The notes under the pieces are model-generated. The model was not told where the DNA came from. It saw nothing but the letters and a program-made list of their open reading frames with translations, and did not search any database. The position numbers were made by a program, and so were the translations under genes. Below, piece after piece: positions 34,248-40,610 of a DNA stretch of 64,000 bases (position 1 is its first letter; each line of letters starts with the position of its first letter). The DNA is from Escherichia coli (GTDB lineage: Bacteria; Pseudomonadota; Gammaproteobacteria; Enterobacterales; Enterobacteriaceae), in NCBI RefSeq assembly GCF_003790525.1, contig NZ_CP033635.1. The stretch is one strand, 5' to 3'.

Positions 34248-34925
34248 CTATTTTCCGATAAATTCAACGCTGGCACCGGTGGCATTACCGTCAGCACCAA
34301 CCGTGACGGTCACTTTGTCGTACGCACGGTCTTCAGGATTGAACACTTCAAACTCAACCTTATTGCCTTTTACTTCGTAAGAGCCAAAATCAGCGGTTTC
34401 TGTTGTTTCCTCGTCATATTCCCGGGCGTATGCCTGCCGGGCAGCCTGCAGGACGGAATCTTTATTAATAGTGGTCGTCTGTTTCGGGGAAAAACCGGCA
34501 AGTGATGTGACAAATTTCGGACAGACCTTCAGCATATCACCGCGGGTGAATTCCATTCGTACACCAAATGCCTGTAAAACGGACACATCACGCTCTGCTA
34601 TGGAGTGAACGGCTTTTTTGACCATTTCCGGCGCCTGTCCGACTTCCACCTCAACAGCCCTGAATCCCGTCTGCTGATTACACATTTGTGATGTGGGGAT
34701 CAGGTTACCGTTAATACTGATACGGCTGCCCAGGAGCGTCTGTACGCCATTCGGGCATTCCTGCATCAGGCCGGTAATACCAATCGTGCCATTTTTCAGC
34801 ATTACCAGTGCCTGACCATCTTCCGTCATGGTCTGACACCAGCCGTTTTTGACAGCCCAGTTGCCGGCGGAGGCGGAGAAGGATGCCACAGTGAACAGCA
34901 GGGGAAAAAGAATTCTGGTATTCAT
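34248..34925 (-). CDS. Secreted hypothetical protein
   Basis: 225 aa; N-terminal signal peptide [20 protein letters not shown]. Confidence 0.55.
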
Positions 34926-35043
34926 GACTGACCTCTGAAATTAAAGAGCGTGTTATTGATAATGACAGACGGTATACGGCAGTGGTTACCGTAATCCGTT
35001 GTCGTGTAAAGGTATACGGTTGCCACGGGGGACTCCGGGGCGC

Positions 35044-35928
35044 TCAGAACAGGTGATCCCACAGTGTGACCAGCAGGTGGATAATGCGGGCCCGGGCTTT
35101 ACGCAGAAGCTGTAACATCCAGGCCGGAAAACTGAACCGGGCAGCGGCGTCGTCAAAACTTTTCCCGATGGCGTCACCAAAAGTCTGTTGTGCGTGTTTC
35201 TGGGCCTGTTCAGAGCGGTTTTCTCCCCGGATATGTGAATAAACCGCGCTGGTTGCCTGTGGTGGCAGTGCGTGGATCATCAGTGACACCAGTGCCTGAA
35301 GATTCCAGCCGACAGGCGCTGCAACGGAGAGTACCGGAAATGATGACGGGAACAGGGTGGCCACCCGGGCTGTTACTGTCGCCAGTGAGAGTTCCTGCTG
35401 ACGGGACGGGCATTTTTCTGTGTCGTTCCATTCTTCAGCAGGAAACACGCGATCGGCATGGCTGAGAACAAACAGAAAACGCGAGGGATCGGCATCTTCA
35501 TTCAGTAAAAACTGATGCATGGCGATGTCGGCAGCATACGCACGTTCATCAGCCCGCAGGATCCAGATAATCAGATCCAGTTCCGGTAGCAACTGATGAT
35601 AAAGTGCCCGGTATTCCTGATCATGCTGCGGTGTCTCACCAATGCCGGGCAGATCGACCAGCGTCATTCTGCGTTCACCGATCTGCAGGGTGAGGTGATG
35701 AGCCTGGCGGGTGCAGCCGTTCAGGGGATGCGTGGCGCAGATATGGGACTGAAAAATGGCATTACACAGGCTGCTTTTGCCTGTGCCGGATTTACCCATA
35801 ATGCCAATCACGGGCTCGTAATGAATAACACCGTGGAGATGTTCAAGGATTTTCTGGCGAATTTCTTCAGGAAGAAACGTCAGATATGATTTCACTTGTG
35901 CAGAGAGGGAAGAATGGCTGAATGACAT
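35044..35928 (-). CDS. YeeP/YkfA/YfjP-family 50S ribosome-binding GTPase
   Basis: 294 aa; G1 GKSGTGKSS; G3 DLPG. Confidence 0.8.
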   Translation of the reverse strand: MSFSHSSLSAQVKSYLTFLPEEIRQKILEHLHGVIHYEPVIGIMGKSGTGKSSLCNAIFQSHICATHPLNGCTRQAHHLTLQIGERRMTLVDLPGIGETPQHDQEYRALYHQLLPELDLIIWILRADERAYAADIAMHQFLLNEDADPSRFLFVLSHADRVFPAEEWNDTEKCPSRQQELSLATVTARVATLFPSSFPVLSVAAPVGWNLQALVSLMIHALPPQATSAVYSHIRGENRSEQAQKHAQQTFGDAIGKSFDDAAARFSFPAWMLQLLRKARARIIHLLVTLWDHLF

Positions 35929-36019
35929 ACCGGTATCCTGTTGATTTCGCTGAACCGGATCACACTAATCCGGTTTATCATTCAGGTAATATGGACGTGA
36001 AAAAATCTGGAGTGACAAA

Positions 36020-37009
36020 GTGTGGAGGGAAGAGATGACGGCACAACAAAGTGATGCGCTGCGTGAGATTGCTAATAAAGCCAGAGTTACCACCATTCTT
36101 CAGAGTAAGGCCTGGAAAGATACCCAGCGAATACTGAAGCGCAGCGGACTTGTGTGCAGAGAACGATCAGAGCCGTTTGATCCGGAGAAACATTTTGACT
36201 GTTATACGGTGCGTTATCTGTACCTGCTTAACATAATAGCACTTGAGCTAAGGCCAGATACAAGGCCAGATACACGGATTAAGGTTGAGGTGGGCCACTG
36301 GTATCGTATGACGGGTAAACGTTTATCACTTAATGTCCCGCCTTTTATGCTGATTCCGCGTAATATCCGGAGAAAAGTGGATGGATTCAGGCAATCAGAA
36401 GGTAAAACAACAAAAAAACCGACTCAACCGTTCACGGGCAGTTTGTATGAGGTTTTGAGCGGGGATATTGATTCGGCTAAGCTGGACGCATGGATTGCTG
36501 GACTACCTCTGAGTGCGCTGGAGGGAGCGAAGGAAATCCCAATCATGGGATTTAGTCCATGGGTTGTAGCCAAATCTGTTCGTCAGTCTGCATCCCCGAC
36601 GTTTGAACTTTTTTATCAGGAGTATCAGTCCCTGGTATTAAAATCTGTTTTTAAACTGGAACCGGGATTTGAACAACTTTTAACAAGACTAAGCTTTATA
36701 AAACAATCAATCCTCAGCAAACAACAATACAGGGTTAAATCGCAGTTACTGGAGAGACTGGGGAATGTGTTGTTTTTCACGTTGCTTTATAACCAGGGAT
36801 GTCCGGGAGAGTTTATAAATACACTTGTGGAAAAGGAGGACATTTATCTGAAAGCGTCCCCCGGGGAAGAAAAGGTGAAAGCACACCAGAAGCTGATTAA
36901 CTACATTGAAGAGTTCTGCAACGAAATGACGGAAAAGTACCTGATGCCTGCAGCCGGGAGACACTACAAAAAGAGGAAAACTGCCAGGAGTGGAAGTAGT
37001 GAAAGTTAA
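36020..37009 (+). CDS. Hypothetical protein, unrecognised family
   Basis: 329-aa ORF; convergent with and overlapping (4 bp) the next ORF. Confidence 0.5.
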   Translation: MWREEMTAQQSDALREIANKARVTTILQSKAWKDTQRILKRSGLVCRERSEPFDPEKHFDCYTVRYLYLLNIIALELRPDTRPDTRIKVEVGHWYRMTGKRLSLNVPPFMLIPRNIRRKVDGFRQSEGKTTKKPTQPFTGSLYEVLSGDIDSAKLDAWIAGLPLSALEGAKEIPIMGFSPWVVAKSVRQSASPTFELFYQEYQSLVLKSVFKLEPGFEQLLTRLSFIKQSILSKQQYRVKSQLLERLGNVLFFTLLYNQGCPGEFINTLVEKEDIYLKASPGEEKVKAHQKLINYIEEFCNEMTEKYLMPAAGRHYKKRKTARSGSSES

Positions 37010-37845
37010 TCCAGTCTACCGTTCAGAATCAGTTGTTCCAGAATAGCCTGCTGTGTTGTTTTCCTCGCTCTGGTCAGTCTGTCCAGAGCGCTTTTTGCGG
37101 ACGGTGATATCTTTACGTTAATTTGTACCCGTTTATCTTTTTTCCCGTCGATAAACTGTTTTCTGAAAGCGTCGTGCATTCTTCTGTAAAAATGTTCTTC
37201 AGCGCAGATCCCGACATGAAACTCTTTGTCGTTGTACTGGCATGGTATATCTCCGGGATACAGTATTTTAAGCAATGCTAAGATGGCAATGCGTTTCTCT
37301 TCGTTATTGACGGGGCAAAACCAGGTTAAATGTGACTCGGGAATACGAATGTTAATATATTTCCATGCCCACTCGAGTTGTTCCGGATTTTTTTTAAGCC
37401 ATGTAGCCTGGTTTTTGTTCCCGATTTCCTTCCAGTTTTTATAGATGGCATCAACGAGATTTTTAGTAAAAGCTTCCGTTTCTATCTGTGCTACACTATC
37501 AATCCATCGCCTGATGATCTCCAGCCGAATCTCATGGGTTGAGGATGACAGCTTACTGATGCAAACAGATTCTTCAGAAGTGGGAAGTTGCATGGTAAGT
37601 TCATAGTAACTGCTCCCTGACACTTTCATATCCTTTATCACCAGACAAAACCAGAATGCTGCAACTTTATCCTTAAGCCATTCAGGTAAATGCCTATCCT
37701 GCACATGACGCGATTTTAACGAATTCAGATTTTCTCCATTTTTCGATAAAAATTGATTCTGTTTATCTCGCCCCTGATCGTTAATCCGTAATGTCATCTG
37801 TTTTCTCCTTCTTTCCGGGTTATCTGTTATTAAACCCCATATCAA
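37006..37845 (-). CDS. Hypothetical protein, unrecognised family
   Basis: 279-aa AT-rich ORF; likely start at the internal MTLRINDQ. Confidence 0.5.
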   Translation of the reverse strand: MIWGLITDNPERRRKQMTLRINDQGRDKQNQFLSKNGENLNSLKSRHVQDRHLPEWLKDKVAAFWFCLVIKDMKVSGSSYYELTMQLPTSEESVCISKLSSSTHEIRLEIIRRWIDSVAQIETEAFTKNLVDAIYKNWKEIGNKNQATWLKKNPEQLEWAWKYINIRIPESHLTWFCPVNNEEKRIAILALLKILYPGDIPCQYNDKEFHVGICAEEHFYRRMHDAFRKQFIDGKKDKRVQINVKISPSAKSALDRLTRARKTTQQAILEQLILNGRLD

Positions 37846-38439
37846 TAAAACGAGTGCAATGCAATAAAATTTACAAATAAAAGCATTTTGTGTTCACAGA
37901 ACGATTATTCACCAGTTATTAATGCAATAAAATATTCCTGAACTATTCCTTGATTAGGAAAAACATGCTATCAACTATGGTTCATGTGCCCCTTGTGGAG
38001 GGCGTTTTGCCGTTCGGCTGTTCTTGTGGTCAGATTAACAATCTGAAGAGTAAAGACGACAGTAATCTGTCTGTTATAGTGGCGATAAAAACACTGAATG
38101 TGCATCCTGTATGTGAAATCCGGTCATGTGGAGCAGTAAGCAATGACAGACATGCATGTTATATGTGAAGGGGGCCGGGAGACGACATAATCAGTATGGC
38201 TGTCATTCTGGTTGTAAAACGCGATCACTTTCCGGGGGTAAAAGATGATATGGAGGCTGACAAACGGTTTGCTTCGGATTGTCTTTTCTGGGGCCTGAAA
38301 TACGGGGGCAGAAAAATAATTCCAGAGTAAATCTGCTCTGTTTTTAGGACAGAAAACTCCATGCTGGCTGTAAAAGTGAGAAATCAACACCCAGTATGTA
38401 TGGAAGTCTGAAGATGTTGAGAATGTCGGTATGATACTA

Positions 38440-38640
38440 TATACACATGTTTTTATTAAGTGTTATATACATATCTTTTTAAATAGATAATTCTACACAT
38501 ATTTTACTAAGTATTTTTACTAAGCATTTCAGTAAGTGTTATACACGTATTTTCTACTAAGTGTTTTACCAGACATACACGTGTTTTCATAAACAGCCCT
38601 ATAAGTGTTTTCATTAAGCATTGCTGTACACATTGCTTTG
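38440..38640. repeat. Iteron-like cluster of short direct repeats (TAAGTGTT and TACACRTRTTTT)
   Basis: At least 4 copies of TAAGTGTT and 5 of TACAC(A/G)T(A/G)TTTT within 200 bp of noncoding DNA. Confidence 0.6.
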
Positions 38641-39522
38641 TCTGAAACTCATCCAGTTTAGTAAATCTTTACGTTAGCTAAAATCAGTTTAAAGCTGCTG
38701 TAAAACCTTTCTGTTTAAGCAATCAATCTGCTATTCGATTTTACTGATGTTGCGTTTAACCTTTTCTGAGATTTCGAGTTTCGACGTTAGCATGAGAAAA
38801 GTATCTTTACGCTAAATCAACCCGAACTTTCCTGAAGTAATCTGACGTTTTTTTCGATGTGCTTTCGACGATTCTGTTAAACGACTTTCTGGATGTTTTG
38901 ATAACAATCAGATTGAGGCATTAACGATTCCTGACGTTTTGCTTTTTCATGTAAGGTCATTGTTTTCGTCATGATGTGATTTTTCTTCTTGCATTGCGAA
39001 AGTGTGATGATTGGTTTTGGTTTTTTGATTCAGATGAGATTTACGTTATCGATGGTTAATCGTTTTTATGGTGCGTAGTGAAATGTAACATTTTCGGGAT
39101 GAGAAAATCGATTCTGATGGTGATGGGGATGATCGTGTTACGGCGTTATCTGTAAACAGGTTTTAAACGTGTCATTCGCATTCGTGATTGAGTAATGTGG
39201 TTAAGCTGTAGGTTTTGGTGTTGTTGTTGATTCACAGCGCCAGAAAGTGCTCTGATTGCGTTTCTGGTGTTTTGTTCGAATGTTCTGTGGATCCTTTTCC
39301 CTTCTGACTTTTCTCGTTGTCCATGTCGTTTTTAAATCCATTCGCTGTTCTTGAGTGTTTTTACCCTGCGTGTAGAATTATCTTTTCGTTCCGGGATGGT
39401 TTGTTCCGTTTCAATCACTCTTAATCAGAGAGTTGTAGCATTGCTCAATGCCGGATGCCGTAAAGTTTTACCGCAGTGATTAATGATGTGAAGTCAATCC
39501 AAATCAACGGAGATCTCTCATC

Positions 39523-40254
39523 ATGAATCAACCAATACACAATGCTTACTGGTTATCCCGTTTTGACAGCCTTCTCAACAGTGCCCTGGCGCAACACCGT
39601 GCCGTTTCGTTAATCCGGGTGGATTTACGTTTTCCTGAGTATATGCCTGCCACCATTATGGATACCGATTTAGATTCAGCGGTGATTTCTCGTTTTTTCG
39701 AATCCCTGAAAGCCAAAATCCAGGCTTACCAGCGGAAAAAACGACGTGCCAACAAGCGTGTGCGTGCAACCACCCTGCATTATTTCTGGTGTCGGGAGTT
39801 TGGCAAGGAAAAAGGCAGGAAACATTATCACGTGATATTACTGCTCAACAAAGATACCTGGTGCTCGCCAGGGGATTTCACCGTTCCTTCTTCGCTGGCG
39901 ACACTGATCAAGCTGGCATGGTGTAGTGCTCTGCATCTTGAGCCCTGGCAGGGTAATGGACTGGTTCATTTTTCCAGGCGGACGCCTTTCCGTAAACCGA
40001 CATCATCTGATGCTCGCCCTTCTTCCGATGATACGCCTTTGTCGGGTGGATGTTCTGATACCAGGAAGGCTTCAGACAAAAAGCCGGGTGAAGCCGCTGT
40101 TCTCTGGATCAAGCGTGGTGATGTGGAAGCGCTGCAGAAAGCCCGGAACAGAGCCAGTTATCTCGTGAAATATGAGACGAAGCAGCATGACGGTTCCGGG
40201 CAACGTAATTATGGTTGCAGTCGTGGGCCGGGGCGTCTGCTGGATGGCAGGTGA
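39523..40254 (+). CDS. Inovirus Gp2-like / YfjJ-YagK family protein
   Basis: 243 aa; motif VSLIRVDLRFPEY shared with two downstream paralogues. Confidence 0.65.
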   Translation: MNQPIHNAYWLSRFDSLLNSALAQHRAVSLIRVDLRFPEYMPATIMDTDLDSAVISRFFESLKAKIQAYQRKKRRANKRVRATTLHYFWCREFGKEKGRKHYHVILLLNKDTWCSPGDFTVPSSLATLIKLAWCSALHLEPWQGNGLVHFSRRTPFRKPTSSDARPSSDDTPLSGGCSDTRKASDKKPGEAAVLWIKRGDVEALQKARNRASYLVKYETKQHDGSGQRNYGCSRGPGRLLDGR

Positions 40255-40610
40255 GCCCTGTAAAACGACATCCGGTGCCTGAGCTTATGCTACAGGACGT
40301 TGGCTGACGCCCTTAGCTCGTTTTCTGAAAAAGTCGTCCTGAAGTCATGCAACGGTATTTTTCTCTGCTTTCGCTCCTGGAAACACTCCGTCGGTAAAAC
40401 CTTACTGTCCTGCTTAATGATGTGAACCGAAGTCAACGGAGAGCATTCATTCTGAACCTGCATCCGGTGTTCTGTCCCTTGTCGGTTACCTGATCTTCCC
40501 GTTCTGCCGCGGTTTTTCACTTATTCCATCAACCCCATACGCAAGCCATAACACGTCAGCGCATCCACGGGCAGGACGCGTTGTGGGCTGCGTATAACGG
40601 AACATATCTT

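Follow-up and report, generated by a model that had tools for sequence, protein, structure and literature searches.

We analyzed a 64,000-nucleotide stretch of the Escherichia coli contig NZ_CP033635.1 (assembly GCF_003790525.1), referred to here as the window, and focused on two facing genes that lie between a gene for a YeeP/YfjP-type GTPase and a gene for a YagK/YfjJ protein. The list of open reading frames (ORFs) for the window contains, exactly as the original prediction described them, a frame of 329 aa with a GTG start (36020..37009, plus strand) and a frame of 279 aa with a TTG start (37006..37845, minus strand), whose TAA stop codons overlap by 4 bp, sharing the palindrome TTAA at 37006-37009. 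We call the plus-strand gene A and the minus-strand gene B, and use L-numbers for the related loci with which they were compared. Translation of both genes likely begins at internal ATG codons, that of A at 36035 behind the Shine-Dalgarno box GGAGGG (36024-36029) and that of B at 37797 behind AAGGAG (37810-37805). The RefSeq models, WP_032354114.1 for A and WP_000175256.1 for B, use the same starts and are both annotated ‘hypothetical protein’. Gene A (36035..37009, plus strand) then encodes a basic protein of 324 aa with an isoelectric point (pI) of 9.55, of an orphan family with an orphan predicted fold, and gene B (37006..37797, minus strand) a basic protein of 263 aa (pI 9.25) whose N-terminal domain is helical and rich in Trp and which probably ends in a ribbon-helix-helix (RHH) domain. 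The stretch is AT-rich, as had been proposed, with a GC content of 0.38-0.46 over 35750-38000, whereas the genes for the GTPase and DUF932 on its left have 0.50-0.57. No terminator-like site was found between the convergent genes in the window. The 4-nt stop overlap recurs in all E. coli loci (L003, L015 and L025-L028 listed) as well as in L013; elsewhere, two loci have an overlap of 11-26 nt and the remaining loci have gaps of 15-121 nt.

The pair in the backbone of a chromosomal island

The region is a chromosomal island of the CP4-44/CP4-57/SRL pathogenicity island (PAI) type. The left frame of the pair is formed by the YeeP/YfjP-type GTPase gene (35044..35928, minus strand), the first gene of an arm that runs on the minus strand through GTPase, a 225-aa protein, DUF905, DUF932, a KlcA-type antirestriction protein, RadC and DUF987 to CbeA/CbtA. 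The right frame is a YagK/YfjJ gene (39523..40254, plus strand; ‘inovirus Gp2 family’, Rep-like, hereafter Gp2-like), which is divergent from B. We observed the order GTPase(-) / A(+) / B(-) / [AlpA] / YagK_YfjJ(+) at more than 20 loci in at least four genera. About a dozen of the loci with the pair are from E. coli (some of them duplicates), in islands that otherwise hold quite different cargo, and the others are from Citrobacter amalonaticus, a Serratia-like contig, Hafnia alvei and five further enterobacterial contigs. Across genera, the place and orientation of the pair are kept at protein identities of 20-30%. The cargo of the window island includes fec and sul1, as annotated in a 100%-identical reference locus, and that of its relatives ireA and Ag43.

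A and B are real genes, and their conservation refutes the reading that they are spurious frames, a possibility raised at the outset: full-length homologs reach down to ~22-30% identity in other genera. The close relatives of A form 67 clusters, none of them from outside E. coli and other Enterobacteriaceae. When 1.84 billion representatives were searched exhaustively with a profile, 49 proteins were recovered, about 17 of which are full-length at 22-32% identity, and the named sources of these distant relatives are almost all Citrobacter, Hafnia, Serratia and Enterobacter; one member of an A-relative cluster is a metagenome-assembled genome (MAG) labelled Acinetobacter sp. Sequence searches detected fewer relatives of B than of A. 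The downstream neighbor of every distant A homolog is nevertheless a B homolog that can be aligned almost end to end at 20-31% identity (E 1e-10 to 1e-28). Against one E. coli homolog, the ratio of nonsynonymous to synonymous substitution rates (dN/dS) was 0.41 for A, 0.34 for B and 0.23 for the adjoining GTPase, values that indicate purifying selection on both A and B. The pair was found on 2 of 72,556 plasmids and at one locus among 2.9 million viral contigs, a rarity which argues that these are genes of chromosomal islands. A scan of a genome-contig collection gave no match with B and, with close A sequences, one MAG only. Literature searches by gene name and accession found no functional study of A, B or their WP accessions. 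In E. coli strain E89 (L027:4448-7353), an IS100 insertion splits A and leaves B intact, so island retention in that strain does not require an intact A.

Among 5,426 complete E. coli genomes, the GTPase start and intergenic region (the first 105 nt of the query) were found at 2,498 places in 1,870 genomes, with up to six such GTPase-side places in one genome. DNA for the N-terminus of an A gene of the type in the window (A-short) was found at 814 places in 741 of the genomes. Slots without A and B contain a single plus-strand gene encoding either 407 aa (1,067 places in 975 genomes) or 376 aa (516 places in 463 genomes). Profile comparison identifies these two proteins as distant A homologs (A-long; hmmsearch E 1.5e-7 and 8e-13, hhalign probability 94.8% and 97.7% over ~180-190 columns). 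Together, the three A-superfamily lineages make up 2,397 places, or ~96% of the GTPase-adjacent slots. The A-long alleles (for example L019:9214-10344, L020:9130-10353 and L021:9130-10353, all annotated ‘hypothetical’) have an extra N-terminal motif, CX4C-X15-CX2H, that is zinc-ribbon-like, are followed by no B, and are far less diverse than the A/B alleles, mostly sharing at least 95% identity. L020 additionally has a 176-aa minus-strand ORF whose family was not recognized.

Whether the two genes always occur together, a point that came with the original prediction, has a divided answer. B is immediately convergent on A in every A-short locus with readable downstream sequence (about 20 loci, down to ~22% identity), but A-long occurs without B, and on a metagenomic contig (L029:28-3924) B occurs without A. 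There, a B homolog of 326 aa (78 bits) is divergent from the YagK_YfjJ gene, and convergent with this B, at A's place, are AbiEii and a DUF6088 (AbiEi-like) gene. The K-12 elements CP4-57 and CP4-6 have neither A nor B by hmmsearch, and no homolog of either was found among K-12 island proteins (YfjH, YagM, YagN and others) by hmmsearch of six-frame ORFs. In CP4-57 (L017, 8352-14356), the yfjJ-yfjP interval consists of abpB, abpA, yfjM, rnlA and rnlB, several of them known for anti-phage or toxin-antitoxin functions. The CP4-57 interval and the AbiE genes of L029 indicate that the junction between the arms can take cargo, while A and B belong to the frame. The pair had been assigned to a cargo area, and this stands insofar as relatives carry abpAB, rnlAB or AbiE there. 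The idea that A and B are themselves variable cargo was rejected: they occupy the same place in at least four genera, the A superfamily fills ~96% of the slots, and, with the exceptions just described, A and B are fixed backbone genes of the island.

Predicted folds and domains of A and B

Protein A had no match in Pfam, NCBIfam, PADLOC or PHROG, and scanning every family member against Pfam, NCBIfam, PADLOC and PDB gave none either; a full-length family profile likewise gave 0 matches at E<=10 against PDB sequences. The AlphaFold model of A, built on a 32-sequence alignment, has a predicted local distance difference test (pLDDT) score of 81 and a predicted template modeling score of 0.80, is mostly helical with a small sheet, and recovered only its own family in a Foldseek search of AFDB50. 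On the strength of this model, we assign A to a superfamily with an orphan fold; the 32 A sequences are basic without exception, with pI values of 9.1-9.85. Invariant residues include W27, Q31, K114, Y138, E196 and F248, and conserved motifs are AW..TQ..LKRSG, P..IRRK..F.Q and GSLY. Domain and fold searches gave no sign of an effector domain (nuclease, NTPase, protease, TIR, pore or other), and domain and structure searches of A no HUH, Rep, relaxase or ParA/ParB signature. Inside A there is a perfect 12-nt tandem duplication at 36250-36274 (AAGGCCAGATAC x2.1), which translates to RPDT-RPDT, a 4-residue insertion missing from nearly all homologs.

Protein B, which is basic in 12 of 13 sequences (pI 8.8-9.7), can be divided into two parts. 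Its first ~220 residues, Trp-rich and helical, gave no convincing structural match and constitute a new domain; the AlphaFold2 model of the whole protein has a pLDDT of 69. The last ~45 residues read VQINVKIS-PSAKSALDRLTRA-RKTT-QQAILEQLIL, and residues ~222-263 (37009..37134, minus strand) form a probable RHH-like DNA-binding domain comprising the VQINVKIS strand and two helices. In the model, this end consists of coil (224-231), helix (232-245) and helix (249-258) at a pLDDT of ~86, in agreement with the RHH topology, a short strand of alternating polar and hydrophobic residues before two helices with a tight turn between them. RHH proteins dimerize through such strands into an antiparallel two-stranded sheet, which contacts the major groove. 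RHH_1 (PF01402) matched B of the window with an independent E-value of 0.065, which is sub-threshold, and sub-threshold matches to RHH_1 or RepB-RCR_reg at E<=0.1 were found in 7 of 13 B-family members, the best at 1.9e-3. RepB-RCR_reg (PF10723) was matched in three B-family members and is precomputed for C-terminal B fragments and, as ‘weak’, for three full-length homologs. NCBIfam PRK13702 scored 13 bits against B, with a cut-off of 87. A profile of the C-terminus placed CopG on top among PDB sequences, in register, at E 0.24; the full-length family profile gave 0 PDB matches at E<=10. Taken together, sequence and model suggest that B probably carries a C-terminal RHH domain like those of CopG/RepB regulators and probably binds DNA. 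Apart from these sub-threshold RHH matches, searches of B against Pfam, NCBIfam, PADLOC and PHROGs gave a single match, to a PHROG ‘replication initiation protein’, which is weak and non-significant (E 0.015). The earlier statement that neither protein matches a recognized family is borne out to this extent.

A hypervariable cassette between conserved flanks

We compared segment identities among six E. coli islands. The GTPase (92-100%) and the Gp2-like protein (86-97%) are well conserved. Identity is 67-100% for residues 1-160 of A, 39-100% for residues 161 to the end of A, 29-98% for the RHH of B and 20-100% for the N-terminal domain of B. Between flanking genes that are 86-100% identical, B and the second half of A thus drop to 20-40% identity, and no other part of the frame varies as much. 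Breakpoints in blastn alignments delimit a hypervariable cassette at 36005..38102 that contains A (especially after ~residue 160), B and the promoter of B; on the left side, similarity at the DNA level is lost at 36004 or midway through A, and on the right side it returns at about 38103-38313. Co-variation among the islands is seen between the C-terminal half of A and its physical neighbor, the RHH of B.

On the GTPase side, the promoter and leader of A (35978..36014, plus strand; -10-like GGTAATAT) lie back-to-back with the start of the GTPase operon and are recognizable in the Citrobacter, Serratia and C. braakii-like loci. In L011 they retain 89% identity over 37 nt, next to an A protein of just ~27% identity. 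The leader (35988-36031) contains three imperfect 15-nt repeats with the consensus AATCTGGAGTGAAAA, each with GGA, the last of which overlaps the Shine-Dalgarno box of A; these repeats could be sites for a translational regulator. An inverted repeat, AACCGGAT-N7-ATCCGGTT, lies in the GTPase-A intergenic region at 35953-35975, and its arms differ yet stay complementary elsewhere (CCTGGC-N7-GCCAGG in Citrobacter and CCGGA-N9-TCCGG in the Serratia-like locus). Upstream of B, an exact 13-nt direct repeat, AATGCAATAAAAT, occurs at 37858-37870 and 37921-37933, 63 nt apart, with a third related copy, ATCAATAAAA, nearer the B start. These repeats were dropped as operator candidates, as they are not conserved in L015 despite its 98% identical RHH.

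On the other side of the cassette, the Gp2-like gene is preceded by 1.4 kb of AT-rich non-coding DNA (38103-39522) without any sizeable ORF. Conservation of this stretch among E. coli islands is ~85-90%, higher than that of the A and B coding genes, and islands that lack B keep it as well, so it goes with the Gp2-like gene and not with B. The stretch contains five tandem copies of the 13-nt unit TTTTACTAAGTAT (38502-38567) and 24-nt repeats at 38436, 38570 and 38594, and from 38750 to 39500 G and T strongly predominate on its plus strand (GC skew +0.25, AT skew -0.3). Rfam gave no match over 35000-40500. Candidate roles for the stretch are those of an origin, a regulatory region and an RNA gene. 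That it harbors B-specific sites was rejected, as it is kept both in B-less islands and across RHH alleles.

Two hypothetical proteins of these islands were also noted. A 57-aa protein, WP_001499034.1, is annotated inside the conserved non-coding stretch at ~39200-39373 (minus strand), ~150 nt upstream of the Gp2-like gene, and annotations of other islands include comparable small ORFs (WP_023150487.1 and the 82-aa WP_000573211.1). In the left arm, the 225-aa ORF between the GTPase and the DUF905/DUF932 genes (34248-34925, minus strand) has a signal-peptide-like start, and a ‘hypothetical protein’ of the same size occupies this position in all E. coli islands examined.

A candidate control module and the alternatives to it

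The reading we favor, tentatively and with less than even confidence, is that the pair constitutes an island-specific DNA-binding control module. B would be a dimeric, sequence-specific DNA-binding repressor or regulator, probably autoregulatory at its own co-varying promoter, and A would be a nucleic-acid-binding partner or target of B. A functional link between the two is suggested by their alternation in the slot, in which there is either a short A with an RHH-like protein or a long A with a zinc-ribbon-like extension and no B; in the B-less islands, the CX4C-X15-CX2H extension of the A homolog may be the DNA-binding part, supplied in cis rather than in trans. Convergent transcription with no terminator would make expression of A and B mutually antagonistic, and the two together could act as a switch over the two island arms, the GTPase-to-CbtA arm, presumed to serve ‘establishment’, and the YagK/YfjJ Rep-like arm. 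Allelic diversity would then prevent cross-talk between co-resident islands, of which there can be up to six per genome. A broader version of this idea, which we regard as speculative and rather improbable, is that the A superfamily is a new nucleic-acid-binding fold that forms, with the GTPase, the hitherto overlooked control or transfer core of a genomic-island family that is among the commonest in pathogenic E. coli, that DNA targeting is provided by B or by the zinc ribbon, and that the deeply divergent alleles are immunity- or incompatibility-like types deciding whether islands coexist or are mobilized.

Several observations weigh against the control module. DNA binding, A-B interaction and regulation are all deduced from sequence, and every RHH match of full-length B is below family thresholds. 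We could recognize no motif for DNA or RNA binding in A, nor does its model match the fold of a regulator. No convincing operator for B was found, and the inverted repeat at 35953-35975 was rejected as an A-specific operator because it is unchanged in E. coli whichever A allele follows. The co-variation of the A C-terminus with the B RHH could be explained by linkage of adjacent sequences alone. The two genes are also separable: about two thirds of the E. coli islands have A-long without B, and L029 has B without A. Finally, hypervariability within a conserved frame is also typical of defense genes.

This last point leads to the alternative that the pair is an unrecognized two-gene anti-phage, abortive-infection or toxin-antitoxin module in an island hotspot, with B sensing or repressing and A as the effector. 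We consider this unlikely. The equivalent interval does contain AbpAB and RnlAB in K-12 CP4-57, AbiEii/AbiEi lie beside the B homolog of L029, and a hypervariable cassette between conserved flanks is what is seen in defense hotspots; RHH domains are, moreover, common in antitoxins and defense regulators. Yet the slot is filled by one homologous family rather than by unrelated systems, in ~96% of the E. coli cases and across genera, and dN/dS is below 1 for both genes. In PADLOC-DB v2.0.0 (2023), no family matched A, B or any of the three alternative slot proteins at E<=1, and A, an orphan helical fold, contains no effector domain that we could find. The toxin-antitoxin role suggested in the original prediction fares poorly in particular, as two convergent genes do not make an operon, the products of both are large and basic, and neither a toxin fold nor a matching PADLOC model was found. 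If the pair were nonetheless a defense system, it would be a new one, present in about 14% of E. coli genomes.

Also doubtful, to a similar degree, is the proposal that A and B are DNA-processing accessories of the excised island, with B as a CopG/TraY-like factor at an origin of replication or transfer, acting with YagK/YfjJ and A as a loader, a nickase partner or a segregation adaptor of the GTPase. Such a role would fit the resemblance of the B RHH to regulators of rolling-circle plasmids (PF10723), the position of B, which is always divergent from the YagK_YfjJ/REP_ORF2-G2P gene even in the A-less L029, and the conserved, AT-rich and repeat-bearing 1.4 kb of non-coding DNA between the two. 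The ‘replication initiation protein’ PHROG match and the invariant Tyr, Arg and Lys residues of A (Y138, R112/R113 and K114) can be counted in its favor as well. However, the PHROG match is non-significant, A has no HUH, Rep, relaxase or ParA/ParB signature, and the non-coding stretch and the Gp2-like gene are unchanged in B-less islands. The RHH strand also differs between alleles (VQINVKIS versus VQISALIS) while the adjoining non-coding DNA remains ~85-90% identical, which makes B-specific sites there unlikely.

A simpler possibility, which we judge decidedly unlikely, is that A and B are unrelated backbone genes that merely abut, each functionally tied to its own arm (A to that of the GTPase, B to that of YagK/YfjJ), with the junction an empty point of cargo insertion. 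A-long without B at ~1,580 E. coli places, B without A next to YagK_YfjJ in L029, an A promoter that stays on the GTPase side and the cargo between the arms of CP4-57 are all as expected for mere neighbors. Against this, each readable A-short gene (~20 loci) has B immediately convergent on it, often with overlapping stops, and the complementary pattern of short A with RHH protein and long A with zinc-ribbon-like extension suggests a functional link. That one or both ORFs are spurious frames, as their AT-rich surroundings and lack of family annotation might hint, can be dismissed as next to impossible in view of cross-genus full-length homologs, conserved motifs, dN/dS values of 0.34-0.41, good ribosome-binding sites and a confident AlphaFold2 model of A.

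The gene adjoining the GTPase is a constant, orphan-fold component of the island backbone, neither junk nor cargo, and one lineage of it is always paired with a probable RHH protein. Islands of this type are often present in multiple copies, occur in about a third of complete E. coli genomes and carry virulence and resistance cargo. The A/B family is common in pathogenic E. coli; its description here is solid, and the mechanism proposed for it is inferred only.

Relation to known systems

A close comparison is with the backbones of CP4-44, CP4-57, CP4-6 and the Shigella SRL island, which share the neighbors YeeP/YfjP GTPase, DUF932, KlcA-type, RadC, DUF987, CbeA/CbtA and YagK/YfjJ. The K-12 elements differ from the window island in having no A or B homolog, and CP4-57 in having defense cargo in the interval. 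In the SRL PAI, the four ORFs orf42-45, listed with ‘no similarity’, are flanked by orf41, which is AlpA-like, and by orf46, which encodes the GTPase (PMC6980539), and judging by this published gene table they probably include the A/B pair. Islands with an integrase, AlpA, RadC and an inovirus-Gp2-like protein have been described as a widespread class whose core functions are unknown (preprint 10.1101/2024.08.29.610337).

Among regulators, B is most reminiscent of the CopG/RepB type, in that its last ~45 residues are strand-helix-helix and that it lies near a gene like those for rolling-circle Rep proteins. CopG-type regulators are proteins of 45-90 aa co-transcribed upstream of rep, whereas B has 263 aa, with a new N-terminal domain of ~220 aa and the RHH at the C-terminus, and is encoded on the opposite strand, divergent from the Rep-like gene and 1.7 kb away from it. 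We therefore do not regard B and the Rep-like gene as a copy-control pair of the kind found on rolling-circle-replicating plasmids (CopG-RepB), given the size, strand and distance of B and the persistence of the Rep-like gene and its upstream region without B. RHH factors of relaxosomes and partition systems (TraY, TrwA, ParG and ParR) bind repeats at oriT or a centromere beside a relaxase or partition NTPase. Near B there are repeats as well, the five 13-nt units at 38502-38567 and the 24-nt repeats. The adjoining GTPase of the island is not of the ParA, ParM or TubZ type (Pfam MMR_HSR1).

Type II toxin-antitoxin systems with RHH antitoxins (CcdA, ParD and RelB-type) are also two-gene units on mobile elements with one RHH member. 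The A/B pair differs from them in being convergent rather than an operon, in having its RHH at the C-terminus of a 263-aa protein, in the nature of the partner, which is basic, helical and 324 aa long and lacks a toxin fold, and in holding a fixed backbone position across genera. AbpAB and RnlAB of CP4-57 and AbiE of L029, which occupy the equivalent interval or lie next to B, have no homology to A or B.

A last comparison, as a functional analogy only, is with the immunity regions of temperate phages (P22 immI with Arc and Mnt, and the lambdoid repressors), where divergent alleles lie in near-identical mobile-element backbones. Phage immunity modules consist of small DNA-binding regulators, of the RHH type in P22, with opposed transcription. 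There is no kinship in sequence or fold for A or for the N-terminal domain of B, and no operator was identified here; the pair also overlaps at its 3′ ends, whereas phage immunity regions have promoters that are face-to-face or back-to-back. Set beside all of these systems, what appears to be new here, judged from the sequences, is that a mobile element carries a probably RHH-based module whose partner protein is without precedent.

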